From Thermodesulfobacteriota bacterium (GTDB lineage Bacteria; Desulfobacterota; BSN033; UBA1163), in NCBI GenBank assembly GCA_049514515.1, contig JBEKUZ010000004.1:15321-79320 (forward strand): a stretch of DNA of 64,000 nt. Reading direction: 5' to 3'. A program made the translations under genes and the position numbers. Numbering within the stretch: position 1 is the first letter of the stretch; the number at the start of each line of letters is the position of its first letter. Under the pieces are notes generated by a model. That model made no database searches, was not told where the DNA came from, and saw only the letters and a list, made by a program, of their open reading frames with translations. This document shows positions 2,534-59,780 of the stretch, in pieces.

Positions 2534-3028
2534 CTATCGGCGCCCGCTGCGCCTTTCCAGCCAATCGCGCACAGCATGACCGGTTCCAAACGGCCACGGC
2601 TTTAGTTTATCAATGGGGATCGATTTGACTTCCGCCAATTCATCTCCCAATTTTATCTCCCCGGCTGCAGAGAGGTGATAGGCGATGATCAATTGGTTCC
2701 TCTCAAAAAAAGAATAAACCCCCACCAGCTCTTTGATCTCGGAATTGAGCCCTAATTCTTCTTTCACTTCCCTCTTGACGGCTGTTTCCGGCGTTTCCCC
2801 TCTTTCCAAAAATCCTGTGATGAGTCCGAACATCTTTCCGGGCCATTCCTTATTCCGCGCAAGAACAACTTGGCCGTCCATTTCGACGATGGCTGCGACG
2901 ACTGGTATGGGATTATCCCAGAACACGTAACCGCAGTCACTCGATGCGCAACAAAGAACCTCTTTCCCGTCCATAGTGCTCATCGTCAAACTTTTCCCAC
3001 ACAGCGGACAATACTTGAATTCATCCAT
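2534..3028 (-). CDS. NUDIX hydrolase with N-terminal zinc-ribbon (NudC-like)
   Basis: CPLCG...CCASSDCGY zinc ribbon followed by a Nudix box (GFLERGETPETAVKREVKEELGL). Confidence 0.75.
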   Translation of the reverse strand: MDEFKYCPLCGKSLTMSTMDGKEVLCCASSDCGYVFWDNPIPVVAAIVEMDGQVVLARNKEWPGKMFGLITGFLERGETPETAVKREVKEELGLNSEIKELVGVYSFFERNQLIIAYHLSAAGEIKLGDELAEVKSIPIDKLKPWPFGTGHAVRDWLERRSGRR

Positions 3029-3091
3029 AACATCCCCATTCTCAAAAAAGTGGACTTCGCAAAACTCGCGTCGTATGTGTCTAAGGAATGC

Positions 3092-4645
3092 TTACGGCAA
3101 TACCATCTCAATGAGATGAGGCCCCGGCTCGGTAAATGCATTGCTCAGTTCCTGGGCGAGGTCTTCTGCAGTGCTGACAGTAACCCCCGGAATTCCAAAC
3201 CCTTGAGCAATTCTTGCCCAATTGATCGGGGGCTTCGTTAGTTCTGTCAGGGCTTGAGCATTCGGGCCAGGCGATGTGTTGCCCGCATGGACCAATTCCA
3301 CCTGAAGGATGCGGTAGCTCCGGTTGGAGCAAATCAAGGTGGTCACGTTTAATCCTTCACGGGCCTGCGTCCACAGGGCCTGCACTGTGTACATCGCACT
3401 TCCATCCGCCTCCAGGTTGATCACCGGCCGATCGGGACAAGCGATGGCAGCACCCGTCGCACAGGGAATGCCCAGCCCGAGCGCCCCGCCCGTCAAGGTC
3501 ATGAAGCTGTAGGCCGGCAGCCACGGAGGCGGAGCAAAATAGAGATACCCCGATGTGGCGGATTCATCGATAATGACCGCGTTTTCCGGCTGCATTGCCG
3601 CCAAAGTAAGACAAGCCTTTTCGGCCGTAAGCTTACCATCTGGTATTGCTTGCCGCTCTTGTCCCGCAAGGAGATTGTCGCCAATGGGAAGATGTGAAGG
3701 TGCGCCCAACGCGTCGGCAAGGTTTTCAAGAGCACCCACGACATTCTGCCGATCCGTACAAAGTGTCATTCTCTCTTGCTCATCAGTCAAAATTCGACTC
3801 CTAAAGCCGGGATACCCAAAGAAGGCAACCGGTTCCGGGGCTCCCGCGAATAGTACTACCTGGTATCGCGAAATCACGGCTGTCGCCTGCCCTGGAAAAT
3901 ATGGAAGCCGCTCCACGATGGGCAGCCCCGCGCCACGCTCCATGTATCCGGGAAATGTTTGAGTAAGGAGATCGCATCCTATCGCCTTCTGAATACGGAC
4001 CGCTGCATCCAGACCAGGCCTTCGCAGCGCCCTCCCTCCGAGCATAAGTGCCACTTTGCGAGAGCCACGTAACCGAGAGGCAATCGCCTTAATGGCATGG
4101 GAGTCAAGAGAATCAAATGGTCCGTCAGATGTCTTCACATTAGAGGAGCCACATTCGGCCAGTTGATAATCGTGAGGCACGATCAGCGTTGCCACCTGAC
4201 CCAGCCGAGTGGCCGTAATCGCCTCCAAGACATCCGCCCCAATCTCGGGAGCAGATTTGCTGGTTCGCCACCACCCTGAGACCGTCCTGGCAAGGCTCTC
4301 AATATCCATGGCGAGCGGCGGGTCCGCATCCCGGTGCCACGTGGCATGCTCGCCGACCACGGTCAGCACCGGCGATTTGGCACGCCGTGCGTTATGCAGG
4401 TTCGATATGCCGTTGGCGAGACCAGGACCCAGATGGAGCAGCACCATTGCCGGTTTATCCAGCATCCGTCCGTAACCGTCCGCAGCGCCGGTACAGACGC
4501 CCTCGAAGAGCCCCAGGAAAGCCTTGATGCCCGACGTTTTGTCGAGCGATGTAACAATCGGCAATTCAGTCGTTCCGGCGTTTGCAAAGCAAACCTCCAC
4601 ACCCGCTTCGATCGCAGTCTTTATAAGAAGCTCAGCACCGTTCAT
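3092..4645 (-). CDS. Thiamine-pyrophosphate-dependent enzyme (acetolactate synthase large subunit/IlvB-like family)
   Basis: N-terminal TPP-enzyme Pyr domain (MNGAELLIKTAIEAGVEVCFANAGTTELPI...). C-terminal TPP-binding GDGS/A...N motif region. True start is the ATG at 4645, preceded by GGAGGAGA; the ORF-track start at 4666 is GTG. Local GC ~60% versus ~48-50% in the neighbours. Confidence 0.8.
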   Translation of the reverse strand: MNGAELLIKTAIEAGVEVCFANAGTTELPIVTSLDKTSGIKAFLGLFEGVCTGAADGYGRMLDKPAMVLLHLGPGLANGISNLHNARRAKSPVLTVVGEHATWHRDADPPLAMDIESLARTVSGWWRTSKSAPEIGADVLEAITATRLGQVATLIVPHDYQLAECGSSNVKTSDGPFDSLDSHAIKAIASRLRGSRKVALMLGGRALRRPGLDAAVRIQKAIGCDLLTQTFPGYMERGAGLPIVERLPYFPGQATAVISRYQVVLFAGAPEPVAFFGYPGFRSRILTDEQERMTLCTDRQNVVGALENLADALGAPSHLPIGDNLLAGQERQAIPDGKLTAEKACLTLAAMQPENAVIIDESATSGYLYFAPPPWLPAYSFMTLTGGALGLGIPCATGAAIACPDRPVINLEADGSAMYTVQALWTQAREGLNVTTLICSNRSYRILQVELVHAGNTSPGPNAQALTELTKPPINWARIAQGFGIPGVTVSTAEDLAQELSNAFTEPGPHLIEMVLP

Positions 4646-13159: not shown

Positions 13160-13228
13160 CCTACAAAATATTTAATGCGTTTGTATTAGTTTGAAGAAAT
13201 GGTGGACTTATGTATTATAATTAATTCG

Positions 13229-16042
13229 ATGGAAAAGTTTATAGAGATTATCGGGGCCAAGTCCCACAACCTCAAGAATATCAACTGCAAAATTCCCAGG
13301 GGAAAGATTACCGTCATCACAGGCGTCTCGGGGTCGGGCAAATCAACCCTCGCTTTCGACACACTCTTCGCAGAAGGCCAGAGACGTTACATTGAATCCC
13401 TCTCCACTTATGCCCGGCAATTCTTAGAGAAGATGGACCGGCCTGATGTCGAAGCCATCCATGGAATCCCTCCTGCCATCGCCATCGAACAGAAAAACAG
13501 CGTCAAGAATGCTCGCTCCACGGTTGGAACAGCCTCTGAGATATATGATTACCTCAGGCTTCTCTTTGCTAAGATCGGTGAAGTCTTCTGCCCGGACTGC
13601 CACGTCAAAGTCTCAGGCGATACCGTGGAGGGTGTCGTAGAACAGATCTTGAGTCAATTTAAAGGAGTAAAGATTTTCATCCTCAGCCCGGTCTCTCTGG
13701 ACGATAGCCAGGAAAGAGAGCTTAAGGTAAAAGATCTCATCAAAAATGGATATTACCGAATTTGCGAGAAAGGCCAAATTCTTGATCTCACCAGCCTCTC
13801 TGCTTCAGAATTTCAACAAAGGTTTTCCCCCTCTTCCTCCCCTCTCCCACAAGGGGAGAGGGTGATGGAGAAGAAAGCTCTCTCCGTCCTCATTGACAGG
13901 CTTGTCTTAGAAGAGAAGGAAAGATCAAGGCTATCTGAAGCCATTCAGAAAGGGTTTCAAGTAGGGAATGGTAAAATTGAAGTGCTCACTGAACAGGGTA
14001 AGAGAATGACCTTCAACAGGAGCTTCTCCTGTAATCGCTGCGGACGAAATTTTTCAGAGCCCGAGCCTCTTCTCTTCTCGTTTAACAGCCCTCTCGGCGC
14101 CTGCCGCGCCTGCCAGGGTTTCGGCAGGATCATTGGGATCGATTGGCAGAAGGTGATCCCGGATCCGAAAAAGACATTGAAAGAAAAACCCTTTGCTCCC
14201 TGGAACACGCCGGCTTATGAAGACCTTTATGAATATCTATGGACGGCCTGCCGGAGGCACAAGATTCCAACCCAAAAACCCTTTGAAGAACTTCTCCCTC
14301 AACAGAAAGAGATTTTAGTCAACGGAAAAGGGGAGTTCATCGGCTTAAAAGGATTCTTTGAATGGATGGAAGGAAAGCGGTACAAAGTTCACTACCGGGT
14401 TTTTCTGAGTAAATACCGGGCCTATACCCCCTGCCCCACCTGTCACAATACCCGACTAAAAGAAGAAGCACTCTATGTGTTACTGGCGGGGAAAAATATT
14501 GCCGAGCTTTGCGACATGCCTATCTCCGACCTCCAGATGTTCTTCAAGAATCTGCCGATCAAAGACTTTCAAAAGAAGGTTGGAGAGCGCCTGCTTAAAG
14601 AGATTAACGACCGAATCGGATTCATGGTGGATGTCGGATTGGGATACTTAACCCTTTCCCGTCAAACCAGAACTCTCTCCAGCGGCGAATATCAGCGCAT
14701 CACATTGGCGAGGTCGCTCGGCTCCGCTCTGACTGAAACTCTCTATGTCTTGGATGAGCCGAGCATTGGCCTGCACGCAAGGGATACCCATCGCCTCCTT
14801 CGGTCCCTCCGGAAATTACGAGAAGGAGGAAATACAGTGGTCGTAGTGGAACACGATCCGGATGTGATACGAGCAGCCGATGAGGTCATTGACCTTGGCC
14901 CCGGGGCCGGAAGATCGGGAGGCTCTATGGTTTTTCAAGGAGGGCTGGAATCCCTTCTGCAAAACCAGGATTCCATTACAGCCCGCTACTTGCGAGACGG
15001 AACGGCCTCTGATCCAATCAGGTCTCTTAGAAAACCGCAAGGGTGGATTTCCATCCACAATGCACGGGAGCACAACCTTAAAGGAATCGATGTGAGAATC
15101 CCGTTGGGCGTAATGGTTTGCATCACGGGCGTCTCCGGAGCCGGAAAGACCACCTTGGTTCACAACATTCTATACTCAGGAGCAAAGGGCAATGGGAGCT
15201 CAGGCTTTGAAAAGGGAGCCTTCGACTCCATCAAAGGTCTCGATCAGATCCATGATCTCATCCTGGTCGATCAATCGCCCATTGGGAAAAGTCTTCGCTC
15301 AAACTCAGCCACCTATATCAAGGTATTCAGCGAGATTCGGGATCTTTTCGCCCAGACCCGGGAGGCCAAGCGATATGGATTCAAACCCCGCCATTTCTCT
15401 TTCAATACAGAAGGGGGCCGATGTGAAACCTGCCAGGGCGCGGGGTTTCAAGTTCTGGACATGCAATTCTTAGAAGATGTCATCATCACCTGTGAAACGT
15501 GTGAAGGGAAGAGATTCCGGCCTGAGATTCTGAAAGTGAAGTACCGAGATAAGAATATTTCAGAAGTGCTAAATATGACCGTTGATGATGCAATCGCCTT
15601 CTTCGAAAGCCATCACCGAATTCTGCAAAAACTTCAAACCCTGAAAGACGTGGGCTTAGGCTATCTCACCCTCGGCCAATCCACCAATACGCTGAGCGGG
15701 GGAGAATCCCAGCGTCTGAAACTGGCTCAGCATATCGGCCAAAGCCATGAGGGGAAGAGTCTCTTCATCTTTGACGAACCCACCACAGGACTCCACATGG
15801 CCGATGTCGAACTCCTTCTGATGACCTTTGAGAAACTTCTTTCCCAAGGCCATTCGATCATCGTGATTGAACACAACCTCGACCTCATCCGACGTGCAGA
15901 TTATATCATTGATTTGGGCCCTGAAGGAGGGGAAGAAGGAGGAAGGATCGTGGCCGAGGGCGATCTCAAAAAGATCATGGCCTCGCCGCAATCCTACACA
16001 GGGCAGTTCCTAAAACAACGCCTGAACGAAACAAAGGTTTAG
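13229..16042 (+). CDS. uvrA: Excinuclease ABC subunit A (UvrA)
   Basis: MEKFIEIIGAKSHNLKNI...GVSGSGKSTLAFDTLFAEGQRRYIESLSTYARQF. Two ABC ATPase modules, zinc-finger cysteines. Start trimmed to 13229 by alignment to the canonical UvrA N-terminus. Confidence 0.95.
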   Translation: MEKFIEIIGAKSHNLKNINCKIPRGKITVITGVSGSGKSTLAFDTLFAEGQRRYIESLSTYARQFLEKMDRPDVEAIHGIPPAIAIEQKNSVKNARSTVGTASEIYDYLRLLFAKIGEVFCPDCHVKVSGDTVEGVVEQILSQFKGVKIFILSPVSLDDSQERELKVKDLIKNGYYRICEKGQILDLTSLSASEFQQRFSPSSSPLPQGERVMEKKALSVLIDRLVLEEKERSRLSEAIQKGFQVGNGKIEVLTEQGKRMTFNRSFSCNRCGRNFSEPEPLLFSFNSPLGACRACQGFGRIIGIDWQKVIPDPKKTLKEKPFAPWNTPAYEDLYEYLWTACRRHKIPTQKPFEELLPQQKEILVNGKGEFIGLKGFFEWMEGKRYKVHYRVFLSKYRAYTPCPTCHNTRLKEEALYVLLAGKNIAELCDMPISDLQMFFKNLPIKDFQKKVGERLLKEINDRIGFMVDVGLGYLTLSRQTRTLSSGEYQRITLARSLGSALTETLYVLDEPSIGLHARDTHRLLRSLRKLREGGNTVVVVEHDPDVIRAADEVIDLGPGAGRSGGSMVFQGGLESLLQNQDSITARYLRDGTASDPIRSLRKPQGWISIHNAREHNLKGIDVRIPLGVMVCITGVSGAGKTTLVHNILYSGAKGNGSSGFEKGAFDSIKGLDQIHDLILVDQSPIGKSLRSNSATYIKVFSEIRDLFAQTREAKRYGFKPRHFSFNTEGGRCETCQGAGFQVLDMQFLEDVIITCETCEGKRFRPEILKVKYRDKNISEVLNMTVDDAIAFFESHHRILQKLQTLKDVGLGYLTLGQSTNTLSGGESQRLKLAQHIGQSHEGKSLFIFDEPTTGLHMADVELLLMTFEKLLSQGHSIIVIEHNLDLIRRADYIIDLGPEGGEEGGRIVAEGDLKKIMASPQSYTGQFLKQRLNETKV
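13826..13865. repeat. Palindromic mini-element inserted in-frame in uvrA (TCCCCTCTCCC-ACAA-GGGGAGAGGG)
   Basis: Encodes SPSSSPLPQGERV inside the UvrA variable region. Same core as the intergenic copies at 4655 and 16483. Confidence 0.7.
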
Positions 16043-16107
16043 GTTTAGGTTTAGGCTAAGATTAAGATTAAAACCTGAGATCCCTCAATCTTAACCTCAG
16101 CCTCAAC

Positions 16108-16368
16108 CTAAATCTCTGTTCTCTGTTTGATGCAGCTGAGCATCTGTTCGAGGCGATTCCGCTCAAATCCGACCATCACCTCGTTGCATGCAGTAATCAC
16201 CGGTACGCTTCGCGCACCAGAAATCTTCACCATCTCGTCCAATGCTGCCCGGTCTTTGGTCACATCGTACTCTGTAAATTTGTAGCCCTTTTGCGAAAGA
16301 AACTCTTTCGCCATCTTGCAATAGGGTCACGTCGGTGTCGAATAAACTTTGATTTCGTCTTCTGCCAT
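16108..16368 (-). CDS. Glutaredoxin-like selenoprotein (UGA-encoded Sec in a U-P-Y-C active site)
   Basis: The track ORF 16108-16314 starts at MAKEF. Extending upstream in frame gives MAEDEIKVYSTPT-TGA-PYCKMAKEFL..., i.e. a Grx/NrdH CPYC motif with the first Cys replaced by an in-frame TGA (16327-16329). GGAGG RBS 8 nt before the ATG at 16368. SECIS-like hairpin follows the UGA. Confidence 0.75.
16285..16326 (-). promoter_or_regulatory. SECIS-like stem-loop immediately 3' of the in-frame UGA
   Basis: mRNA UGA-CCCUAUUGC-AAGAUG-GCGAAAG-AGUUU-CUUUCGC-AAAAGGG. 7-bp upper stem with a 5-nt G/U-containing loop, plus a lower stem CCCUAUUGC/GCAAAAGGG, at the spacing of bacterial SECIS elements. Confidence 0.5.
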
Positions 16369-16482
16369 AGGGATTCCTCCTCGTTCATATATTATTCACC
16401 GCTTCTTCTTTATTTTTACACATATCCCCTTTGAATTGTCAACGAATGTTTTTTCCCGAGCTTTTCCTTTTATCGGGTTCAC

Positions 16483-16552
16483 CCTCACCCCGCCCTCTCC
16501 CCTCAAGGGAGAGGGAAGTGGAAGGTGGTTCCACCCTCACCCCGCCCGCTGC
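16483..16552. repeat. GC-rich palindromic mini-element (CACCCTCACCCCGCC-CTCTCCCCTCAAGGGAGAGGG...CACCCTCACCCCGCC)
   Basis: Palindrome CCCTCTCCCCTCAAGGGAGAGGG flanked by 15-bp direct repeats. Homologous to 4655-4712. It generates the spurious N-terminal extension of ORF 16431. Confidence 0.7.
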
Positions 16553-16661
16553 CTCAGGCCTGACCCGTACTATTCATCTCGAATTTCTCTATCATTGGCA
16601 CGAAAGGTGTCTAATATTATATCGCAATTTTCAGATTTCCTTTACAGAATTTTGGGCTATA

Positions 16662-17384
16662 ATGTCTCTCATGAATTTTTCGGGAAACAAATCGGCCGCC
16701 GTTAGAAGGTCGAAGTCTAAAGATCTCCAGAATGCAGCAGAGGACTTCCGTTATCTCCTGAACCGACGATACCCCAGGAAAGCTGCGCTTGAACTCGTCG
16801 GGAATCGATTCGGACTGACTTTCGATGAACGGCATCTTCTTCACCGAGGAGTTTTCTCAAGTGCCGATTCTAAATCCAGAAGGAAAAGAATTGTCCCTAT
16901 CACTGGTATCCGGAACAAAGACTTGGCCATCGATGGTCACAATGTCTTGATTACCATTGAAGCTGCCCTCTCCGGCCGTGCTCTGGTTCTTGCAGATGAC
17001 GGGTTTATCAGAGACATCTCCGGCCTCTCAGGAAGTTTTAGGAAATCGAAGGTAACAGAAACAGCCATCCAATTGGTTCTCAACGTCTCAAAGAAGTGGA
17101 AACCCCGTAAAACCCTCTTCCTTTTCGATGCACCGATCAGCATGAGCGGTAAATTGGCCCGGGAGATCAGGGATCGACTGAATCAAGCGAACCTTCCAGG
17201 AGATGCCGTGGCAGTGAAGGTACCGGAGAAGATTCTGATTGGGTTCCCTGGAGTAATCGCTTCGAGTGACACGGCAATCATTGACCGATCTGAGAAGGTG
17301 TTGGATTTGGCCGGCTATATCATAACGAAGAAAATTGGCTTAAAATCTTTTCTGCAATGGAAGAGAAGACCGCTGGTTGACTGA
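16662..17384 (+). CDS. Conserved hypothetical protein (~240 aa)
   Basis: Start moved to MSLMNF (16662). The upstream part of the track ORF is made of repeat-element sequence. No confident family assignment. Confidence 0.45.
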   Translation: MSLMNFSGNKSAAVRRSKSKDLQNAAEDFRYLLNRRYPRKAALELVGNRFGLTFDERHLLHRGVFSSADSKSRRKRIVPITGIRNKDLAIDGHNVLITIEAALSGRALVLADDGFIRDISGLSGSFRKSKVTETAIQLVLNVSKKWKPRKTLFLFDAPISMSGKLAREIRDRLNQANLPGDAVAVKVPEKILIGFPGVIASSDTAIIDRSEKVLDLAGYIITKKIGLKSFLQWKRRPLVD

Positions 17385-42897: not shown

Positions 42898-44041
42898 GTA
42901 ATTATTTACTTGACACACAAGAATTTTTATGCTACATTAATCTTAACAAATACTTGAAAGGAATATCTCATGGAAACAACAATTCAATTCCCAAAAACCT
43001 TACAGGAAGCAATCGCCTACTTTTCTGATTCTGACCGATGTTTTGAATATGCGGTAAAACTTAGATGGCCGAATGGAAAAATCACTTGCCCCCGTTGCGG
43101 ATCGGATAAACACTCTTTCATTTCAACACGTCGCCTTTGGTGGTGCAAGGGTTGCAAACAACAATTCACCATGAAAGTAAATACCATCTTCGAGGATAGC
43201 CCTCTTGGTATGGATAAATGGATGACTGCCCTTTGGTTGTTAGTGAATTGTAAAAATGGAATCAGTAGTTGCGAAGTCGCCCGTGATCTTGGAGTTACAC
43301 AAAAGACTGCATGGTTTATGTTACATAGACTACGCCTTGCTATGCAGACCGGATCATTCTCTAAACTTGGCGGAGAAGTTGAGGTTGACGAAACATTTAT
43401 TGGTGGCAAGGCCAGAAACATGCATCCCCAAAAGAAGAGCCTTAGAGTTACCGGAAGAGGGGGGAAGGATAAAGTCCCCGTTATGGGAATCTTGGAGCGT
43501 GGCGGAGAGGTTAGGACAGCCATCGTCCCAAGCCGGAAGAAGAAAGTTCTTCAAAACGAAATCAAGAAGCATGTTAAGGCAGGAAGCGCACTTTATAGTG
43601 ATGCCTTGCGGTCTTATGATGGGCTTGATTCAGAATTTGCTCACAAAGTCATTGACCACGCCGTTGCATACGTTGACGGTAAAGTCCATACAAACGGCCT
43701 TGAAAACTTCTGGAGTCTTTTGAAACGTAGCTTGAAGGGGACCTATGTCAGTGTAGAACCTTTTCATCTCTTCCGTTACTTGGATGAACAGAGTTTTCGT
43801 TTTAACAATCGGAAAGAAATGAATGATTCGGAAAGATTTGAAGAAGTGATGAGCCAAGTTTTAAATCGTCGCGTTACCTTTAATCAACTCACTGGCAAAG
43901 AAATTTCTACGACGCAACTCAATTAACCACAAACGTCAAGGACGGGGCAAGCGAAAGAAAAACTAACTCTTTCGCCTATGCCCTGTCTTACATTTTTTCT
44001 CTGCTTCTTTAATTTCGGACTTTGGTACCTTAAATAATTTC
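42898..44041 (+). mobile_element. IS1595-family insertion sequence (single transposase ORF). The ends are approximate.
   Basis: A DDE transposase with an N-terminal zinc ribbon fills the interval. Imperfect terminal inverted repeats GTAATTATTTAC (left) / GAAATTATTTAA (right, reverse complement). Transposase terminator hairpin at 43943-43995. No clean target-site duplication recognised. Confidence 0.5.
42970..43926 (+). CDS. IS1595-family transposase
   Basis: N-terminal zinc ribbon (CPRCGS...CKGC) + DDE domain (...VEVDETFIGG...YSDALRSYDGL...HAVAYVDGKVHTNGLENFWSLLKR). Confidence 0.9.
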   Translation: METTIQFPKTLQEAIAYFSDSDRCFEYAVKLRWPNGKITCPRCGSDKHSFISTRRLWWCKGCKQQFTMKVNTIFEDSPLGMDKWMTALWLLVNCKNGISSCEVARDLGVTQKTAWFMLHRLRLAMQTGSFSKLGGEVEVDETFIGGKARNMHPQKKSLRVTGRGGKDKVPVMGILERGGEVRTAIVPSRKKKVLQNEIKKHVKAGSALYSDALRSYDGLDSEFAHKVIDHAVAYVDGKVHTNGLENFWSLLKRSLKGTYVSVEPFHLFRYLDEQSFRFNNRKEMNDSERFEEVMSQVLNRRVTFNQLTGKEISTTQLN

Positions 44042-45845: not shown

Positions 45846-46922
45846 TTATCGGCGAGGACTTTCTCCCCTTATCTTTATTAATTCTGCTACAATGCTGACA
45901 GCGATTTCCTCAGGGGTTTCGGAGTTGATGTCAAGTCCGATGGGTGCGTGAACTCGTTCCAGCGTCTCTTTGGAGATTCCTTTTTTCTTCAAACTCTGAT
46001 AAAGAGTCTTAATCTTCTTCTTCGACCCTATCATTCCGATATACCGCGCGTTTGTCTTGATTGCCTGTTCCAGCACGAAGCCATCATAAAGATGACCTCG
46101 GGTGACGATGACAATATATGAGGAATCATCAACATCGAGTCGGTCGAAGCACTTCTCAAATTCTGACACGACGACTTCGTCCACTTCTGGGAAACGCTCT
46201 CGATTGGCAAACATCTCCCGGTCATCGATGACCATCACCCTGAAATGGACTTTCTTGACAAGAGGAGCCAACTGTTCAGAAATATGGCCTCCCCCAAAAA
46301 TATAGACCGTCGGCTCACAAAAAACGGGTTCCAGCAGGACTTCCACCTTTCTCTGTTCAGAATTTAAGACTGACATCTTCGGCCTTTTCTCTTTTAATAA
46401 TATCTTACCTTCACTCAAAAGCTTTTTCCGTAATTCCACTCCGCCAAATAAAGAACCGAACTTCTCTCCGGAAGTCTTCATCAATATCTTCGGGCCTTCT
46501 CTTTTTGGAAAATCAGCATCCACCGAGACCAGCGTAGCCAAAATAGCTGACCCGCCCTTCTGTCTTATCTTTGCCGCCTCCTGGTAGATGCTTAAGAAAT
46601 CTTCTTCAAGGGGTTCCAAAAAGATGTCAATATTTCCCCCGCAGATCAGCCCACCTTCTGCCAATTGCTCAGACGTAAGGTCGAAATGGAGAATTCGCCC
46701 CTTCCCTGTCTCCATCACTTTTTGAGCTTCTTGCCAAACCTCTGCCTCAACGCATCCTCCCCCAATAGAGCCGACAGAAGTTCCGTCTCCTTTAACCAAA
46801 TATTTCGCGCCCACTGCCCTGGGGGCAGAGCCTATCCGGTTGACCAGAGTAGCAAGTGCACACTTTTCTTTGTTCTCAAGGGCTCTCACTATATCAACGT
46901 ATATGTCCTGCACGATCCTCAT
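45846..46922 (-). CDS. xdhC: XdhC/CoxI-family molybdenum-hydroxylase accessory protein
   Basis: XdhC_CoxI N-terminal domain + XdhC Rossmann C-terminal domain (VYIFGGGHISEQLAPL). Confidence 0.85.
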   Translation of the reverse strand: MRIVQDIYVDIVRALENKEKCALATLVNRIGSAPRAVGAKYLVKGDGTSVGSIGGGCVEAEVWQEAQKVMETGKGRILHFDLTSEQLAEGGLICGGNIDIFLEPLEEDFLSIYQEAAKIRQKGGSAILATLVSVDADFPKREGPKILMKTSGEKFGSLFGGVELRKKLLSEGKILLKEKRPKMSVLNSEQRKVEVLLEPVFCEPTVYIFGGGHISEQLAPLVKKVHFRVMVIDDREMFANRERFPEVDEVVVSEFEKCFDRLDVDDSSYIVIVTRGHLYDGFVLEQAIKTNARYIGMIGSKKKIKTLYQSLKKKGISKETLERVHAPIGLDINSETPEEIAVSIVAELIKIRGESPRR

Positions 46923-47039
46923 CCCTCACTAAACTCTTAGGAAATAAGAGACCTCCTTATGATTTCATCCCATTCCGGTATGTTGGAGTGCACTCACCCC
47001 TATGTGCTACGGTGATATTTTCCGTAATGGGCTTCATTT

Positions 47040-47618
47040 TTAAGGCCTCTTTCCTTTTGTGGCTGGTTTCTGCTCCGTCCGTGGAGGCATTTTTTCCACA
47101 TCCTTTGAATGGGCAAGAGGAAGAAGGTAGAGTTTGTAAAAAATTGGGTCACCCCACAATTTGATTTCGGGTGCCAAATCCCCTACTAGAGCGGAGAAGG
47201 GAGGAAAATTGTTATAGGCATTAAAATTCTCCGAGACGTCTTTTAAACATTTATAAAGCTTGACCGAGGCGCCGAGATGAGCGGGTTTCTCCTTCAACAA
47301 CTTAATCTGTTGAATTCCCGTTTCGATCGATGCTTGGTCTTCCTCCAGCTTTGATATCCAAAATTTTCCCTCCTGATATAGAACCTCCGTCTCCCCCGTC
47401 TGAACGGCCTGCATCAGCTTTGTGCGAATCCCTTGAGCCCGCTTCATCACTTCATCCAGTTGATTGAGCAGCTCCATTTTGTCTTTCTTGGAAAGTTCGA
47501 CGGTCTTGGATGAGGCTTTTGACAAAAAATACTGCAGAGTATCGTCTTCTGCAAAGCCCATGCTGGTGAAGCCAAAGGACAAAAGAATTGCCGTGAGAAA
47601 GAATTTGCCACGTCTCAT
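47040..47618 (-). CDS. Secreted hypothetical protein (signal peptide, coiled-coil)
   Basis: MRRGKFFLTAILLSFGFTSMGFA signal peptide. No family recognised. Confidence 0.45.
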   Translation of the reverse strand: MRRGKFFLTAILLSFGFTSMGFAEDDTLQYFLSKASSKTVELSKKDKMELLNQLDEVMKRAQGIRTKLMQAVQTGETEVLYQEGKFWISKLEEDQASIETGIQQIKLLKEKPAHLGASVKLYKCLKDVSENFNAYNNFPPFSALVGDLAPEIKLWGDPIFYKLYLLPLAHSKDVEKMPPRTEQKPATKGKRP

Positions 47619-47728
47619 CTTATCCCTCCATTAACCTCTCGTCCATCCCCTCTCCTCTGCCTGGAAGGCAGGGAAAACAGCCCACCCGTTTGGGCAATGG
47701 TCACGGTGACGAGGCCCGTTTCGGACAA

Positions 47729-47876
47729 TGAACGATGGACAACGAACAAATAAACAAAAAAATAATAAGCTGTTCATCGTTTATCGTTTCATGTTCATCG
47801 TCCCTAACAACATGGGCATCCTCACCCTTGCCCGCGGACAGAACCTGTTTTCAATGAAATCGTTCACGATGAACTT
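47729..47876. promoter_or_regulatory. Array of TGTTCATCG / CGATGAACA motif repeats (3' of yqeC, 5' of the secreted-protein gene)
   Basis: ATGAACGATGGACAACGAACA; GCTGTTCATCGTTTATCGTTTCATGTTCATCGT (about 10-bp periodicity); palindrome GTTCACGATGAAC at 47862-47874; GTCACGGTGAC at 47708-47718. Confidence 0.55.
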
Positions 47877-48695
47877 CTATGGAAAGATCACCTCTACCAC
47901 AGGGGGCTCACTATTCAACTGTCCCAAGACGATCTTTTCGATCTTCTGGTGCTTTTTGTCAAGAACTTTCTGCGCGATATTCCTTGCCTTTGCTACGCCA
48001 TCTGGAAGGTCCACTTTGTTAAGGAAGGCGACGACCCTAGACGAAGAAGGAGCTCCTTTAAAGATGCCCTCGGAATGAGTCATTAAAATAGCCATGGCCT
48101 CATCCGTCAGCCTTTCTCCAACAGGAATCCCTGTTATCTTTGAAACCCTTTCCGGCTGAAAAACATTTTCATCGCTTAATTCTTTCCCCATCCCATCTGT
48201 CCCCAAAATGGCCACGACTAAACTCGTCGCCGTTGGGATCACGGGCTCATTCTCCCTCGGCGCTTTCACCGGTCGGCCCGCCGCGCCATCCGCTTCTACA
48301 ATAACCACATCCGTTTCACGTAAACGCCAAAGTGCACCCACTAATTTTTGAGAAATCCCCTTCAATTTCCCTGATTCAAGCCTCTCCCGAGCAACCGTGA
48401 TATGAGCGTATCGATCGAGATGGCGCCGCACAAAATCCTTAATCTTCCCTTCATCCGGATCGACAAACAGAGAACCCGTTTCTCCTAAAGCGGGCTCCGC
48501 TATCTTCGTGGTCGTAGTGGTAACCACCTTCATCCCGCGGAGAAGCAGCTCTTTGGCAAGGCGAAACATGAGTGTGGTCTTTCCCCCTGCCCCGACCAAG
48601 CTGACCACGTCCCTTGCCTTGATCCCCAAGGCTTCGGTCAGAGAATCAACCATGCCTTCCTCTTTGGGGTCTCCTTCACAAGCTCTCCGTGACAA
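47877..48695 (-). CDS. yqeC: YqeC-family selenium-dependent molybdenum hydroxylase accessory protein (P-loop)
   Basis: P-loop LVGAGGKTTLM. Length and pattern fit the TIGR03172 family. Confidence 0.7.
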   Translation of the reverse strand: MSRRACEGDPKEEGMVDSLTEALGIKARDVVSLVGAGGKTTLMFRLAKELLLRGMKVVTTTTTKIAEPALGETGSLFVDPDEGKIKDFVRRHLDRYAHITVARERLESGKLKGISQKLVGALWRLRETDVVIVEADGAAGRPVKAPRENEPVIPTATSLVVAILGTDGMGKELSDENVFQPERVSKITGIPVGERLTDEAMAILMTHSEGIFKGAPSSSRVVAFLNKVDLPDGVAKARNIAQKVLDKKHQKIEKIVLGQLNSEPPVVEVIFP

Positions 48696-48725
48696 ACACG
48701 TGACGGACGATAAATGATGAACAGT

Positions 48726-48810
48726 GCGTCTTCTCTTTTGTTCACTGCCTATAGTCTATTGCCCACGGTTCATTGTTCATCGCCCATTGTTCATGGTTGA
48801 TCGTTCGAAA
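48726..48810. promoter_or_regulatory. Second array of GTTCATCG-type repeats upstream of yqeC
   Basis: CGATAAATGATGAACAGTG; TTGTTCACTG; CGGTTCATTGTTCATCGCCCATTGTTCATGGTTGATCGTTCG; also CGTGACAAACACGTGAC. Confidence 0.55.
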
Positions 48811-48842
48811 CGTCCCTCGTCACCCGATCCCGAACACCATCT

Positions 48843-49688
48843 TCATCGATTGAACCTGTATAAAACGGCTTCCAGCACTCCTCCGCCAATGGCTCTTGCT
48901 TTATCTGAGATAGTAAAGCAGGACTCCTTTTTGCCCCTCGGATCGATATCGCCTACCTTCATCCCTTTCTTTACTTCCACCCCTTCTCGAAGAAGCCCTC
49001 TCAAAACACCGCTGATTCTGGCGATGACCGGAAAATCGTCTACCACCGCCACCACGGATCCCATTTCCAGTCTATCTCCAATTGATTTTTGTGGATGGAA
49101 AATCCCCTTTTTCATTGTTCGAAGAACCCTTCCCATCGTATATCCGCCGATCTCCCCCGGAATGCCCGTGTCAGGTTCTGCTGTCCCATTCAAGATCATC
49201 CTGCCCAGCTGCTGTCCGCGATTCGTTTCGATGACGATGTGAACATCTCTTCCTGCCGTAAACCCTGGACCAAGACCGATCACCAAAGGCGCATCGTGAA
49301 CCTGAGTACCTAAATTCTGCTTAGCCATGATGGCGTCCACCAGGACATCGGGTTTCAAAAAACTTTTTGTCCTCTTCCCATCAGGGTCCACAAGAATTGG
49401 GACGTCCGCTTTCTGCCACACGGATACAACTTCCTCCGGCCTGGAAATAAGTCGGGCACGAACGCCTTCCACTTCTTTCTTGCCTTCATAGATCGCCTCG
49501 CTGAAGGCTACCTCTCTTCTTACAGCCAGGGGATGGGGGATCTCTGTCAGGCAGATCTTAAAATGGGACCGGTAAAGCCGGTGGGCAACCCCGCTGGCGA
49601 CCTCCCCGGCCCCTCGAATCAAAACGACTAACTCACCCACGCTCTTTTTTGATTTCGTCTGAATTCCCTTCTTCATTCTCTCACTCAA
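48843..49688 (-). CDS. yqeB: YqeB-family selenium-dependent molybdenum hydroxylase system protein
   Basis: N-terminal Rossmann-like GAGEVASGVAHRL. Length (~280 aa) and pattern fit TIGR03309/EF2563-type. 4-nt overlap with mocA. Confidence 0.6.
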   Translation of the reverse strand: MSERMKKGIQTKSKKSVGELVVLIRGAGEVASGVAHRLYRSHFKICLTEIPHPLAVRREVAFSEAIYEGKKEVEGVRARLISRPEEVVSVWQKADVPILVDPDGKRTKSFLKPDVLVDAIMAKQNLGTQVHDAPLVIGLGPGFTAGRDVHIVIETNRGQQLGRMILNGTAEPDTGIPGEIGGYTMGRVLRTMKKGIFHPQKSIGDRLEMGSVVAVVDDFPVIARISGVLRGLLREGVEVKKGMKVGDIDPRGKKESCFTISDKARAIGGGVLEAVLYRFNR

Positions 49689-50281
49689 TCCTTGCTTCTT
49701 CCTTCTCGCCCTTTTTTATAATCTTGCCACGTATCCACATCCTTTACAACGCCTATCGATTTTACGCGAATCGCTCGTACGTCTTGAGGATGCCTCTCCA
49801 TGATGGGCCTGCCTCCCACATCTCCCTCCAAATTCAATAACTCCTTCCTGTATCTCCTATGGAAAATAACAGGATGCCCTTGTCTACCCTGAAAGGAGGG
49901 AACGATGATTCCACCTTTTCCTTTTTGAAAGGCATGGATCAAAACATTGATCGTCGGCGTCTTGAGAAAAGGCTGATCCCCCAAAGCGATGAGGATCCCG
50001 TCACTTTTGGAGCGGACGGCCATAAGACCTCTACGGATGGAAGTACTCATGCCCCTGTACGAATAGGGATTGATGACGGCTCTCGCTTTTCGACTGCGAA
50101 ATAGATTTTTCGCCCCCTTCTTTCGAACGCCAAGGACGATGACTAGCTCCCGGACTTCAGATCGCAACAGAGTTTCAAAGCAATGCTCCAGGACGGTCTT
50201 CCTTCCCCAAGGCAGGGATAATTTATCGACGCCCATTCTTTTCGACTTACCGGCTCCGAGGAGAATGGCTGAAATCATCAT
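49685..50281 (-). CDS. mocA: Molybdenum cofactor cytidylyl/guanylyl-transferase (MocA/MobA-like NTP transferase)
   Basis: ILLGAGKSKRMGVDKLSLPW...LGDQP: MobA-like NTP_transf_3 signature. Confidence 0.8.
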   Translation of the reverse strand: MMISAILLGAGKSKRMGVDKLSLPWGRKTVLEHCFETLLRSEVRELVIVLGVRKKGAKNLFRSRKARAVINPYSYRGMSTSIRRGLMAVRSKSDGILIALGDQPFLKTPTINVLIHAFQKGKGGIIVPSFQGRQGHPVIFHRRYRKELLNLEGDVGGRPIMERHPQDVRAIRVKSIGVVKDVDTWQDYKKGREGRSKD

Positions 50282-55565: not shown

Positions 55566-55901
55566 ATGAAGATCGGTTATAAAGTCTGGCTTGACAATCA
55601 TGGGAAGGCCTTTGGAGATGGCCCTTATGAGCTTTTGAGGCGAGTGGAAAAACTGCTGTCCCTTCACCAAGCGGCCAATCAAATGGGTATGTCCTACAGC
55701 AAGGCATGGCGCTTAATCCAGACCCTGGAAGAAAGGCTTGGCTTTGCTCTTCTGGAGCGGAAGGTCGGCGGCCCATCCGGAGGAGGGTCCCGGGTCACCT
55801 CCCAGGGAAAAGATCTCATGAGCCGATATGAGCGATTTCGGAAGGACGTGGAAAAGGGACTGCTGAAAATCTATGATAAACATTTTGGGCCGCGGAAATA
55901 A
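55566..55901 (+). CDS. modE: ModE-like molybdate-responsive regulator, N-terminal wHTH domain only
   Basis: LSLHQAANQMGMSYSKAWRLIQTLEERLGFALLERKVGGPSGGGSRVT, as in the ModE N-domain. Confidence 0.7.
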   Translation: MKIGYKVWLDNHGKAFGDGPYELLRRVEKLLSLHQAANQMGMSYSKAWRLIQTLEERLGFALLERKVGGPSGGGSRVTSQGKDLMSRYERFRKDVEKGLLKIYDKHFGPRK

Positions 55902-56682
55902 AAGGACGGCAAGGAATTCCTTGATCACCCTCCTTCTCGCTGTCTCGGTGATCCATAGTGCTCAATCCTTGTTTGCCGAGCCAGCAAAAGAGATTACCGT
56001 CTCCGCTGCGATTAGCCTCAAAGACGCATTTGTAGAGATCGGGAAGATCTTTAAAGAGAGGCACCCAGGAGTGAAGCTGGTCTTTAATTTTGCCGCCTCA
56101 GGGGATCTTGCAAGGCAGATTGAGGCCGGCGCCCCCGTCGACCTATTCGCCTCTGCGGCACAAAATGACATGGACGATATTGACCGCAAAGGCCTCCTTG
56201 TGGCCAATTCGAGGGCTAATTTTGCGAGCAATAAAATGGTCTTGGTAAAACCCGCTCGTTCAAGAATCCCCGTAAACTCATTTCAAGACCTCCAAAAAAA
56301 TGAGATAAAAAGGGTGGTCATCGGAAATCCCAAAACGGTTCCGGCAGGGAGATATGCGGAAGGGATTTTAAGATATTTTAGTTTATGGGATGTGGTCAAG
56401 GAAAAACTTGTCTTTGCTGAACACGTCAGACAGGTTTTGGACTATGTTGATAGGAATGAAGTCGATGCAGCCATTCTCTATTCAACAGACGCCTTCCTCA
56501 GAGATAAGCAAGTTAAGACGGTCGCCGTGGCACCGGACGGGAGCCATCAGCCTATTATCTATTCTATTGCTACCGTCAAGGGGACCAAGAATGAGAATTT
56601 AGCGAAATCATTTATTTCTCTTATCCTGTCTGAAGAGGGGAAAAAGGTTCTTCAGAAATTTGGATTCGGGATATTAAAATAA
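55873..56682 (+). CDS. modA: Molybdate/tungstate ABC transporter substrate-binding protein
   Basis: Signal peptide. ModA-type motifs (AAISLKDAF...FNFAASGDLARQIEAGAPVDLFASA). Confidence 0.85.
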   Translation: MINILGRGNKRTARNSLITLLLAVSVIHSAQSLFAEPAKEITVSAAISLKDAFVEIGKIFKERHPGVKLVFNFAASGDLARQIEAGAPVDLFASAAQNDMDDIDRKGLLVANSRANFASNKMVLVKPARSRIPVNSFQDLQKNEIKRVVIGNPKTVPAGRYAEGILRYFSLWDVVKEKLVFAEHVRQVLDYVDRNEVDAAILYSTDAFLRDKQVKTVAVAPDGSHQPIIYSIATVKGTKNENLAKSFISLILSEEGKKVLQKFGFGILK

Positions 56683-56688
56683 AAAGCC

Positions 56689-57354
56689 ATGGAAAGCACC
56701 CTCTTATTCTCTCTGAGACTTTCCGTACAGGTGGCATTGGCCGCAACGTTCCTGATTGTGATGGTAGGCGTTACGGCCGCGTATCTCCTTGCGAGCAAGA
56801 ACTTCAAGGGAAAGGAGTTTATTGATATACTCTTCACCCTCCCTCTGGTACTGCCGCCCACGGTGACCGGCTATTATCTGATTATACTCTTCGGGAGAAA
56901 TGGTCTGATCGGTAGATTTGTTTACGACTGGACAGGATGGGGGATCATGTTTACCTGGTACGCAGCCGTCCTTGCCTCCTTTGTGGTAGCTCTGCCGCTG
57001 ATGATCAGGACCACAAGAGCCGCTATCGAATCCGTAGACAAGAGTCTCATCAACGCGTCGCTCACCTTGGGCCATTCGGAATTTGAAACGGCCCTCCGGG
57101 TCGTGCTTCCTCTTGCAAAAAAGGGCATCCTTGCCGGAACGGTCCTTTCCTTTGCCAGGGCGATGGGAGAATTTGGTGCCACCCTGATGGTTGCAGGAAA
57201 TATCCCTGGAAAAACAAACACCATGCCCCTTGCGATTTATACCTCCGCGAGCAGTGGGGATTGGTCAAAGGCCAATGTCATGGTCATTTTCTTTTCTCTC
57301 CTATCAGGGCTATTTCTTTATATCGCAAACCAATTTACCAAAAGGACGATCTAA
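56689..57354 (+). CDS. modB: Molybdate ABC transporter permease
   Basis: BPD_transp_1 EAA-like loop. 5-6 TM helices. Confidence 0.88.
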   Translation: MESTLLFSLRLSVQVALAATFLIVMVGVTAAYLLASKNFKGKEFIDILFTLPLVLPPTVTGYYLIILFGRNGLIGRFVYDWTGWGIMFTWYAAVLASFVVALPLMIRTTRAAIESVDKSLINASLTLGHSEFETALRVVLPLAKKGILAGTVLSFARAMGEFGATLMVAGNIPGKTNTMPLAIYTSASSGDWSKANVMVIFFSLLSGLFLYIANQFTKRTI

Positions 57355-58064
57355 TGGGATTATCAGTAAAATTGTTGAAAAAAGTCAAAGGATTTACCCT
57401 TGACGTGGAATGGAAGATAGGGAATGAGCTCGCCATTCTTTTTGGTTATTCGGGGTCGGGGAAATCCTTAACCCTTCAATGCGTCGCCGGTCTTATGGAA
57501 CCTGACGAAGGGTTCATTCGCTCCAACGGGGACCTCTTTTTCGATAGCACCTTGGAAATAGATGTGCCTCCTCAAAAACGATCCTTCGGATATGTCTTCC
57601 AGGATCGTGTTCTTTTCCCCCATATGACCGTGAGAGGAAACATAGCCTACGGGCTCAAGGGACTGCGTCATTCCGACATAAAGGATAAAGTGGGCCAAAT
57701 GATGAACCTGTTTCACCTCCAGGGGTTGGAAGACAAGTTCCCTTCGGAAATCTCCGGAGGTCAAAAACAGAGAGTCGCGCTTGCGAGAGCCCTCATCCGG
57801 AGACCCAAAGCGCTCCTTTTAGATGAACCCTTTTCAGCGCTCGATGGCCCGATACGGCTGGAAATGAGACGGCTCCTGAAGGATATCAGAAATGATTTTG
57901 ATATCCCAGTGGTCCTCGTGACGCATGATGTGATCGAAGCTTATGCCATGGCCGACAAAATCATTGTCTATTCAGAAGGGAGAGTCGTTAAGACAGGTTC
58001 GCCATCCGAAATCTTTTATCTCCCGGTAGGCTCAGAGGTGGAACCACTTCGGGATAGAATTTGA
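57354..58064 (+). CDS. modC: Molybdate ABC transporter ATP-binding protein
   Basis: Walker A GYSGSGKS. Signature ISGGQKQRVALARAL. Start at MGLSVKLL overlaps the modB stop (TAATG). Confidence 0.85.
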   Translation: MGLSVKLLKKVKGFTLDVEWKIGNELAILFGYSGSGKSLTLQCVAGLMEPDEGFIRSNGDLFFDSTLEIDVPPQKRSFGYVFQDRVLFPHMTVRGNIAYGLKGLRHSDIKDKVGQMMNLFHLQGLEDKFPSEISGGQKQRVALARALIRRPKALLLDEPFSALDGPIRLEMRRLLKDIRNDFDIPVVLVTHDVIEAYAMADKIIVYSEGRVVKTGSPSEIFYLPVGSEVEPLRDRI

Positions 58065-58459
58065 AACCTCCCAACGAAAGGGGGAGCCTCGAGGGGTGGC
58101 GGGGAAAGCATTACTGCCCCACTGTCTTATTACGACGCGGCCTCTGCTCAATCTCCTCTCCCCGTCTGTTTTCGGCTTATGGTGTGCACATGTTTGTTAC
58201 CCGTTGTGCACAAATGCCCCTTCTCCCAGACCCATCGGTTGCCATCCAGAATTAAAATGAAGACAAATGCGGCCAGGGCCAAATAAATCGAAATACGGTT
58301 GCTTGTATCCGGCACTAGTATTGCCCGCCATAGGAATGTCAGGTTTTCCGGCCCCCCGTCAGGACGGAACAGGGCACTTGCTGGCTAAAGGACGGCGGTT
58401 GCAATCCTCTTATTTCATTCGAACTTCTGGCATAGAGGTCTTCGTTTAGGGGGAAAGCC

Positions 58460-58849
58460 ATGGACATTCCGATGGAGCCAAAAACATTTGGCCTTCTGGT
58501 AGCCATCCTGTTTTCCCTTGTCTCTCTTCTTGTCAATCTCCTTCAGCGCCGTTACGCAAAGAGCCGTTTCGGGCGTACCCTGAGAAAGGAAGAGTCCGTC
58601 GTGAAATTCCTGGGAGCAATAGATAAAAATCTCGGTAAACTGGAAGTCAGTTGCACCCTCGAACTGCAAGGGGTAAGCTCCCCCCAGGAAGTGGGGAAAA
58701 AGATCCATGTGGTACGGAATGAGATTCAATCAGCTATTGCTAACATAGAGGAACATCTTCGCTCCTTTCGTCAGTACCGGCGAAAAGAAAAAAAACGGGG
58801 AAAACAGAGAAAAGGGTTGGAGAAATCATACCAGAGATCGTCAGGATGA
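58460..58849 (+). CDS. Hypothetical small membrane protein with basic C-terminus
   Basis: N-terminal TM helix, Lys/Arg-rich tail, GGGGGAAAG upstream of the ATG. Confidence 0.4.
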   Translation: MDIPMEPKTFGLLVAILFSLVSLLVNLLQRRYAKSRFGRTLRKEESVVKFLGAIDKNLGKLEVSCTLELQGVSSPQEVGKKIHVVRNEIQSAIANIEEHLRSFRQYRRKEKKRGKQRKGLEKSYQRSSG

Positions 58850-58957
58850 GGGGCTTCATGATAAACGTGACCTTGCCCTATCGCTGCGCAATTCTGGGGA
58901 CCGTTGTCGGTCGTTCATGCACCATTTCGGCCGGGGAGGTAGATTTTCTAAATAGGA

Positions 58958-59623: not shown

Positions 59624-59635
59624 AACCCCTCTAAA

Positions 59636-59780
59636 AGGATTCGAGGATTCAAGGGTCCAAGGGGTCGAGTGTCAACATTGAATTCATTTTTACAATGGCT
59701 AAACATTGATCCACTCCGTCCATCCCTTAGTGTCACTGGAATCCTTGAACCCTAGCCCCCCTTGAACTCTTCAAAGGGTA
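59636..59780. repeat. Composite inverted-repeat element of the GGAATCCTTGAACCC / GGGGTCGAG family
   Basis: GGATTCGAGGATTCAAGGGTCCAAGGGGTCGAG ... GGAATCCTTGAACCCTAGCCCCCTTGAACTCTTC. The two arms are in inverted orientation. Related to 26500-26545 and 34695-34760. Confidence 0.6.

Follow-up and report, generated by a model that had tools for sequence, protein, structure and literature searches.

Is the TGA triplet that lies in frame ahead of a short glutaredoxin-like open reading frame (ORF) in this stretch of Thermodesulfobacteriota DNA a stop codon, or is it read as selenocysteine (Sec)? The gene in question, referred to below as grx, lies on the minus strand of contig JBEKUZ010000004.1 (15,321-79,320); the whole 64,000-nt stretch is designated the window, and gene positions are given on its numbering. 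The mechanical ORF list of the window holds at this place only a 68-residue ORF (16108-16314) that starts with MAKEF. An earlier note on this DNA, which had described the start of that ORF correctly, proposed that the gene reaches further upstream and that an in-frame UGA stands there in place of the first cysteine of the CxxC redox motif of glutaredoxins (Grx). The comparisons reported here lend support to the Sec interpretation overall, through the fold of the product, the pairing of Sec with Cys in orthologues, the conservation of the TGA and a hairpin specific to the TGA forms. We estimate at about 0.93 the probability that 16108-16368 on the minus strand encodes an 86-residue glutaredoxin-like selenoprotein belonging to the YruB/NrdH-like branch of the thioredoxin fold.

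An in-frame TGA at the position of the first active-site cysteine

Read on the minus strand from the ATG at 16368-16366 to the TAG at 16110-16108, the gene translates conceptually as MAEDEIKVYSTPT-stop-PYCKMAKEFLSQKGYKFTEYDVTKDRAALDEMVKISGARSVPVITACNEVMVGFERNRLEQMLSCIKQRTEI-stop, the residues around the UGA being MAEDEIKVYSTPT-stop-PYCKMAKEFL (Table 1). The internal stop is TGA, and the C-terminus reads Q-R-T-E-I-TAG. The start codon is preceded by the GGAGG motif pointed out in the earlier note, the spacer between them being 7 nt rather than the 8 nt given there. An intergenic scan of the window for further TGA-interrupted ORFs left grx as the sole plausible case.

Table 1. Positions of the grx gene, its predicted recoding elements and associated features (window numbering unless a related locus is named).
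Feature	Position	Strand	Remarks
Full candidate selenoprotein gene (grx)	16108..16368	-	86 codons + TAG stop; glutaredoxin-like (YruB-type), predicted Sec at codon 14
In-frame TGA, codon 14, probably read as Sec	16329-16327	-	First position of the U-P-Y-C redox motif (16329-16318)
Shine-Dalgarno motif GGAGG	16380-16376	-	7 nt ahead of ATG 16368
Internal ATG (Met19)	16312..16314	-	Codon 19; from the ORF list; probably taken wrongly as start by gene callers, giving the 68-aa stub
Cys61 codon	16186..16188	-	Kept in the clade; without counterpart in the nearest solved homologue
Cys79 codon	16132..16134	-	Kept in the clade; near the C-terminus, eight residues ahead of the stop
Putative SECIS core hairpin, GCGAAAGA / GUU / UCUUUCGC	16311-16293	-	8 bp + triloop; starts 15 nt after the UGA
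Proposed lower stem, CCCUAUU (16326-16320) / AAAAGGG (16292-16286)	16286..16326	-	Present in the window sequence; not conserved
37-nt inverted repeat	16030-16066 / 16084-16120		Overlaps both gene ends where uvrA-like and grx converge; from repeat search
HdrA-like gene	L084:3797-6916, ~2.1-5.2 kb beyond window position 64000	-	1039 codons, one in-frame TGA at codon 83 (FPTNDCSIUILAPK)
MvhD/FlpD-like gene	L084 ~2823-3650	-	Adjoins the HdrA-like gene; in-frame TGA in GFVCHWUAYGAGD

Family scores were computed on the 86-residue product with U replaced by C. The Pfam Glutaredoxin domain (PF00462) was matched over residues 6-59 with E = 4.9e-19 and 68.7 bits against a cutoff of 22.9. TIGR02196 (YruB) was the best-scoring NCBIfam model; its match spans residues 6-77 (model positions 2-73 of 74) and reaches 88.5 bits, 0.05 bit under the curated cutoff of 88.55. 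The NrdH-redoxin model TIGR02194 was not reached (55.3 bits, cutoff 85.75), and the score for the bacterial Grx3 model was likewise well under its cutoff. The closest solved chain is a glutaredoxin, PDB 7c10_A (E = 4.3e-16), whose TCPHC aligns on T-U-P-Y-C of the product with the TGA opposite its first Cys. Since this alignment starts at residue 5, the 13 residues upstream of the TGA include strand beta-1, and a protein limited to the 68 annotated residues would be devoid of that strand and of the whole thioredoxin-fold active site. The match to YruB over the classical Grx models, together with a VGF(E/D) motif that we take to stand in place of the classical GG motif of Grx, weakly suggests a reductant of the thioredoxin-reductase type rather than glutathione.

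The product also scores above the cutoff of NF041212, the Uxx-star subfamily model (72.8 versus 66 bits), in a match covering model positions 1-66 of 70 only; the cutoffs of all three family-level equivalog or exception models are far from being reached (55.5 of 72, 48.3 of 100 and 46.4 of 97 bits), the related Uxx-star models being NF041114, NF041211 and NF047338. The name-giving feature of Uxx-star is presumably a Sec (or Cys) three residues before the stop (U-x-x-stop). No such feature is present in the grx product, which ends in R-T-E-I-TAG and leaves the last four positions of NF041212 unmatched, and its filing under Uxx-star was rejected on this ground despite the score.

Conservation of the TGA and of the codons upstream of it

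One scan of species-representative genomes yielded 80 loci, nearly all of them from uncultured Thermodesulfobacteriota or Syntrophaceae-like metagenome-assembled genomes (MAGs) and a few from other MAGs; related genomic loci are designated below by L-numbers, and database proteins from the homology search by P-numbers. The TGA was found at the identical codon in the window and in 64 other loci, while 14 orthologues carried TGT or TGC there. In these 14 orthologues, as in the solved glutaredoxins, it is the first Cys of CxxC that aligns with the TGA, which is where the earlier note had placed it. Full-length Cys orthologues of 84-88 residues also exist among the database proteins (including P0001, P0005, P0008 and P0012). 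The flanking DNA of the relatives is approximately 66-94% identical to that of the window, and the gene order uvrA-like / grx / DUF434-DUF5616 / major facilitator superfamily (MFS) is conserved among them.

Alignment of 40 gap-free TGA orthologues revealed that the amino acids specified by codons 2-13 are kept, with a normalised synonymous entropy of 0.49-0.99. The sequence upstream of the TGA is thus translated. Variation is synonymous-only on both sides of the TGA, in codons 2-13 and in codons 15-86, and the 13 codons that precede it align with the N-termini of the Cys orthologues.

These observations bear on the simplest alternative, in which translation does end at the TGA, the annotated 68-residue protein that starts at Met19 and is devoid of CxxC is the functional product, and the upstream 13 codons are an untranslated leader or encode a separate leader peptide. 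The 68-residue stub is indeed the output of every gene caller, UGA otherwise acts as a stop in this organism, and no sel genes were seen locally. Yet such a product would lack the elements of the fold described above, and the 13 codons show protein-level conservation with free third positions. Initiation signals point the same way: GGAGG precedes the ATG at 16368, and 41 of the 62 sequences scanned (window plus TGA orthologues; in several of the others a start further upstream was picked) have a Shine-Dalgarno-like motif suitably spaced from the inferred start, whereas none is visible in the 14 nt preceding the internal ATG at codon 19 in any of the 62. In six of these sequences, moreover, codon 19 is ATA, ATT or AGG, so that the annotated start does not exist in them. 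All the comparative checks suggested in the earlier note, other than a direct look for sel genes, turned out in favour of Sec. Termination at this codon is therefore, in our judgment, very improbable.

Two observations on gene copies were made in the course of this comparison. Locus L043 holds two tandem TGA-containing grx copies (L043:2461 and L043:3039), one of which has an extra in-frame stop (SGR-stop-QVPV) and may be a pseudogene or reflect a sequencing error. In the Desulfobacterales-type relatives L046-L076 (e.g. L047:543 and L054:3310), the Sec/Cys Grx-like gene is followed after about 280-550 nt by a classical glutaredoxin (GCPFC ... GGYSDL), a tandem that the window's clade lacks.

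A hairpin downstream of the TGA is conserved in TGA forms

The earlier note had described, directly 3' of the UGA, a two-tier hairpin resembling a bacterial selenocysteine insertion sequence (SECIS) at the spacing usual in bacteria. The upper tier, GCGAAAG-AGUUU-CUUUCGC, is present as proposed. Folded alone, these 19 nt form 8 bp with a GUU loop at -8.6 kcal/mol (z = -3.29), a stability equalled in 4 of 200 shuffles, and the apical loop lies 22-23 nt past the UGA, the distance to the loop read as AGUUU being 22 nt (16326-16305). The bacterial SECIS consensus underlying the bSECISearch model, as given in Fig. 2A of PMC13188914 and the legend to that figure, consists of an apical loop of 3-9 nt on a stem of 4-16 bp, a G in the first two loop positions, typically N1-G-(G or U)-N-N2 with N1 and N2 pairing, a UGA-loop distance of 16-37 nt and a minimum free energy (MFE) of -7.5 kcal/mol or lower. 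The window hairpin agrees with this description in all four respects, having an A-G-U-U-U loop in which A and the last U pair, a 7-bp stem (or 8 bp with a 3-nt loop), a distance of 22 nt and an MFE of -8.6 kcal/mol, but is without a conserved lower stem.

The lower tier fared less well. The arms listed in Table 1 are paired in 75.7% of cells in TGA forms versus 70.4% in Cys forms, 35 of 64 sequences do not keep pair 9-45, and the synonymous sites of the codons concerned (15-17 and 26-28) vary freely. The lower stem was accordingly not accepted as a conserved element, there being no Sec-specific pairing signal and no constraint on its synonymous sites. As written in the earlier note, furthermore, its 3' arm GCAAAAGGG includes the terminal GC that already belongs to the upper stem, and the two tiers cannot both form.

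Comparison of the upper helix between the two kinds of orthologue gave a different picture, and the claim that the hairpin is conserved in orthologues held. Positions of the helix are paired in 94.9% of cells across 64 distinct TGA sequences versus 72.4% across the 14 Cys orthologues. In the TGA forms, two cases of GC-to-AU compensation and 14 of G-U pairing were counted, and at least six of the eight pairs are retained in the MFE fold of 57 of 65 TGA sequences. The loop GU is found in 65 of 65 TGA sequences versus 9 of 14 Cys orthologues. The same proportions apply to the GAG codon of Glu22, whose third base is the loop G (65/65 versus 9/14), and the CTT codon of Leu24 is used in 65/65 versus 10/14. 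The 19-mer has a median MFE of -8.6 kcal/mol among TGA forms versus -3.2 kcal/mol among Cys forms; -7.5 kcal/mol is reached by 42 of 65 TGA sequences and by none of the 14 Cys orthologues. In one of the latter, L014, the protein of which is 88% identical to that of the window, the loop G is already gone, as is part of the stem.

The codon choices of the TGA forms follow the same outline. Across the 40 gap-free TGA orthologues, synonymous variation is near saturation gene-wide and collapses at codons 20-25, where GCG (39/40), AAA (39/40), GAG (40/40), TTT (35/38), CTT (40/40) and TCG (32/39) are used. Mean normalised synonymous entropy is 0.27 at codons 20-26 versus 0.76 elsewhere (Mann-Whitney p = 0.001), and the two lowest 7-codon entropy windows of the gene fall exactly at the hairpin. 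By comparison, Leu codons 43, 73 and 77 each use five different codons, and the other Glu codons of the gene vary as well. As judged from this sequence comparison, the hairpin is conserved specifically in TGA forms.

A second alternative, in which UGA is reassigned to Trp or Gly (genetic codes 4 or 25) and a full-length protein carries W or G at position 14, finds its argument in database proteins of 86-97 residues that show W at the Sec position (TWPYC; P0002, P0003, P0007, P0009-P0011, P0013 and P0014), one cluster of which has 90 member sequences. These entries are most simply explained as artefacts of metagenome pipelines calling genes with code 4 or 25. UGA is an ordinary stop in this organism, 26 of the 57 retained long window ORFs ending in TGA, and the related loci are from Thermodesulfobacteriota-type MAGs; to our knowledge, reassignment of UGA to a standard amino acid has not been reported in this lineage. 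W or G would also abolish a redox centre in which 14 orthologues and the solved structures have the catalytic Cys of CxxC, and a downstream hairpin conserved only in TGA forms would have no role. Reassignment can thus be given hardly any credence. Equally negligible is a decaying pseudogene or an assembly error, for although damage occurs in a few related loci (a second in-frame stop in L043, a frameshift in L079, a run of N in L044), the identical TGA recurs in 64 other independently assembled loci with only 66-94% flanking identity to the window, several assemblies made independently match the window at 100% identity wherever they were compared with it, and a pattern of purifying selection is found on both sides of the TGA.

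The reading that we prefer, namely that the gene is truly Sec-glutaredoxin-like and has a minimal SECIS core of 19 nt, is very probable on the strength of the comparative evidence.

Selenocysteine decoding in the organism

Several results weigh against Sec insertion at this locus. In a context of 44-66 nt, the window sequence prefers a different MFE fold (z about -1.5), and the RNAalifold consensus for the 65 TGA sequences (-1.43 kcal/mol) is likewise a different fold that fails to recover the hairpin and contains no compensatory pairs. Covariation over the whole structure is not above that of shuffled controls, 56 of 500 shuffles reaching the observed score. The 19-nt core attains the consensus threshold of -7.5 kcal/mol in only the 42 of 65 sequences mentioned above, about one third of the orthologue cores being weaker, and ten sequences with TCC (Ser25) carry a C-C mismatch. 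No Rfam family was matched at gathering thresholds over the whole window, and a search of 16230-16400 with E up to 10 returned chance-level matches to unrelated families only. Given the unremarkable single-sequence fold in context and the failure of RNAalifold to find the hairpin, the case for the latter rests on the comparison of orthologues, and, formal covariation being weak, its support consists in conservation and not in compensatory change. Scanning 57 ORFs of the window against Pfam and NCBIfam revealed no selA, selB or selD, nor did the precomputed Pfam annotation of the 10 kb beyond either end; tRNA-Sec was not found in the window, nor was any tRNA gene in the 60 related loci scanned.

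Further evidence came from the DNA beyond the window. Over the compared stretches the window is 100% identical to JGI Ga0439241_0000222 and to NCBI DBZJ01000009.1 (GCA_002311635.1), with an overlap of 11,128 nt, and the same contig carries, about 2-6 kb past the window end, two more TGA-interrupted genes (Table 1). In the HdrA-like gene, which gene callers split into products of 82 and 901 residues, the TGA stands opposite the second Cys of FPTLDCSMCILAPK in the solved structure of HdrA (8rvv_A, E = 1e-57). In the adjoining MvhD-like gene, truncated to 255 residues by the gene caller, it aligns with a Cys of GFCCNWCTYGGAD (CCNWCTYGGAD) in 5odc_D (E = 3e-39). HdrA and MvhD/FrhD are classical CxxU selenoprotein families (Table 1 of PMC13188914), and several selenoproteins of the HdrA/MvhD type are listed for Syntrophus aciditrophicus (Table 3 of PMC1794560). 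Three independent genes with Sec/Cys pairs being present on one contig, it is very probable that the organism decodes UGA as Sec.

The window also contains markers of selenium traits, namely YqeB (TIGR03309, 367 bits, cutoff 220) and YqeC (TIGR03172, 184.6 bits, cutoff 73). Together with an XdhC-family gene they occupy 45846-49685, profile matches thus confirming the yqeB/yqeC/xdhC cluster that had been noted about 30 kb away from grx; with MocA, the cluster runs over 45846-50278. More broadly, a molybdenum/tungsten cofactor neighbourhood is visible at 45846-50278 (XdhC-family AOR maturation factor, YqeC, YqeB and MocA) and 55873-60988 (solute-binding protein, permease and ATPase; MobB and MoeA), and an AFOR_C fragment begins at the window end. 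This neighbourhood is consistent with a maturation trait for a selenium-dependent molybdenum hydroxylase or AOR.

Proposed mechanism

A model may be put forward for Sec insertion, SelB binding, the catalytic cycle and the reductant. Translation would begin at the ATG at 16368, behind the GGAGG Shine-Dalgarno site. When the ribosome reaches the UGA at codon 14, the mRNA hairpin at 16311-16293 would act as a bacterial SECIS, recruiting SelB-GTP-Sec-tRNA(Sec) so that Sec is inserted and termination does not take place. In the resulting U14-P-Y-C17 centre, Sec14 is predicted to be the nucleophile that attacks a substrate disulfide or an oxidised partner; Cys17 would then resolve the intermediate to an intramolecular selenenylsulfide, to be re-reduced by an external reductant. 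This putative catalytic cycle is drawn by analogy with the characterised clostridial Sec-Grx, Sec-glutaredoxin being listed as verified in PMC13188914.

Relation to known selenoproteins

The kind of protein described here has been known for about twenty years, and the window gene is an added, systematically mis-annotated case of it. Table 1 of PMC13188914 counts Sec-containing glutaredoxin (Grx, PF00462, UxxC) among the prokaryotic selenoproteins verified by experiment, with WP_010943784.1 as representative and Kim et al. 2011 as the source. This protein was found in Geobacter sulfurreducens, Alkaliphilus metalliredigenes and Moorella thermoacetica, with three genes in a census of completed genomes (PMC1794560), in ten sequences of the Sargasso Sea data (PMC1088965), and in the Global Ocean Sampling (GOS) data (PMC2398784). 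Thermodesulfobacteriota are among the most selenoprotein-rich bacteria (PMC13188914).

The window clade shares with Sec-Grx of the UxxC type the PF00462 domain, a single Sec in place of the first Cys of an N-terminal CxxC, a bacterial SECIS hairpin directly downstream within the coding region, the coexistence of Cys orthologues, and hosts that are selenoprotein-rich anaerobes. It differs in its best-scoring model, which is YruB and not a classical Grx model, in the two extra conserved cysteines, Cys61 and Cys79, and in the conserved uvrA-like / grx / DUF434-DUF5616 / MFS arrangement. With YruB (TIGR02196) it has in common the format of a small CxxC protein of about 75-85 residues, from which it departs by having Sec in place of the first Cys. 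With Uxx-star (NF041212) it shares a Grx-like domain and an N-terminal Sec-type motif, and the Cys orthologue P0015 (MDY6974072.1) bears this name at NCBI; unlike Uxx-star, the window gene has no Sec three residues before the stop. The clade is mildly distinctive in possessing Cys61 and Cys79, in its conserved gene order and in how widely it has been mis-annotated.

By inspection of translations, Cys61 is kept in close orthologues and in the Desulfobacterales-type group and is absent in the distant loci L077 and L078; PDB 7c10_A has no Cys at the aligned position. Cys79, likewise kept in the close orthologues and the Desulfobacterales-type group and absent in L077 and L078, is an invariant amino acid in the 40 close TGA orthologues, with its codon split 20/20 between TGC and TGT. 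The two cysteines may make up a further redox or metal site, or else a structural disulfide. It is conceivable, though we consider it unlikely, that the clade constitutes a distinct, unrecognised Sec-glutaredoxin-like subfamily characterised by YruB-like sequence, U-P-Y-C, a Cys61 located in the beta3-beta4 turn, a Cys79 that lies where the C-terminal helix ends, and a conserved gene neighbourhood that includes a UvrA paralogue and a DUF434/DUF5616 protein. Were this so, the extra Cys pair might be a functional analogue of the C-terminal Sec/Cys of Uxx-star that serves a dedicated partner.

Mis-annotation and its consequences

At NCBI the exact 68-residue stub goes under the name 'glutaredoxin family protein' (MGA2515283.1). 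It was recorded on 52 contigs, and on every public contig inspected it is what the gene callers had reported. Its cluster comprises 235 members, those listed (n = 15) all being 68-70 residues long, and the homology search returned more than 100 further matches of 68-70 residues, almost all of 68 among the matches listed. Exact look-up of the full-length form with X at the Sec position found no entry in the collection. The truncation of bacterial selenoprotein genes in annotation is acknowledged to be a systematic problem (PMC13326102).

The main value of the present finding lies in annotation. Neither the stubs nor the entries with spurious Trp have the active site that defines the protein, and functional or selenoproteome censuses built on them therefore under-count Sec use in Thermodesulfobacteriota. 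The existing knowledge of selenoprotein biology is unchanged. Beyond annotation, the locus is a clean natural experiment, with one orthologue represented by 65 Sec and 14 Cys forms, and illustrates how small a bacterial SECIS can be, here a putative 19-nt hairpin within the codons for A-K-E-F-L-S, and how fast it decays after replacement of Sec by Cys.

Other features of the window

A simple promoter and terminator scan of 15950-16650 found neither, including no T-tract terminator. A TTGACA box is visible upstream of the grx gene in several related loci. The inverted repeat at 16030-16120 has arms that are 81% complementary and 17 nt apart, contains AGGTTT-like units and spans both stop codons of the convergent genes; despite having no T tract, it may represent a bidirectional terminator.

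A 27-nt GC-rich direct repeat (GGGTTCACCCTCACCCCGCCC...), with copies at 16475-16501 and 16527-16553 that are 52 nt apart, is situated where grx and the DUF434/DUF5616 gene diverge and falls inside an over-extended TTG-start ORF (16431-17384). An IS1595-family transposase (DDE_Tnp_IS1595 with a zinc ribbon) is encoded on the plus strand at 42970-43923, between pilin-like genes and the HEPN/XdhC region. The gene convergent with grx, at 13199-16039 on the plus strand, encodes a 947-residue UvrA-like ABC ATPase that matches the interaction and DNA-binding domains of UvrA only in part; a match to this protein was found in 41 related loci.

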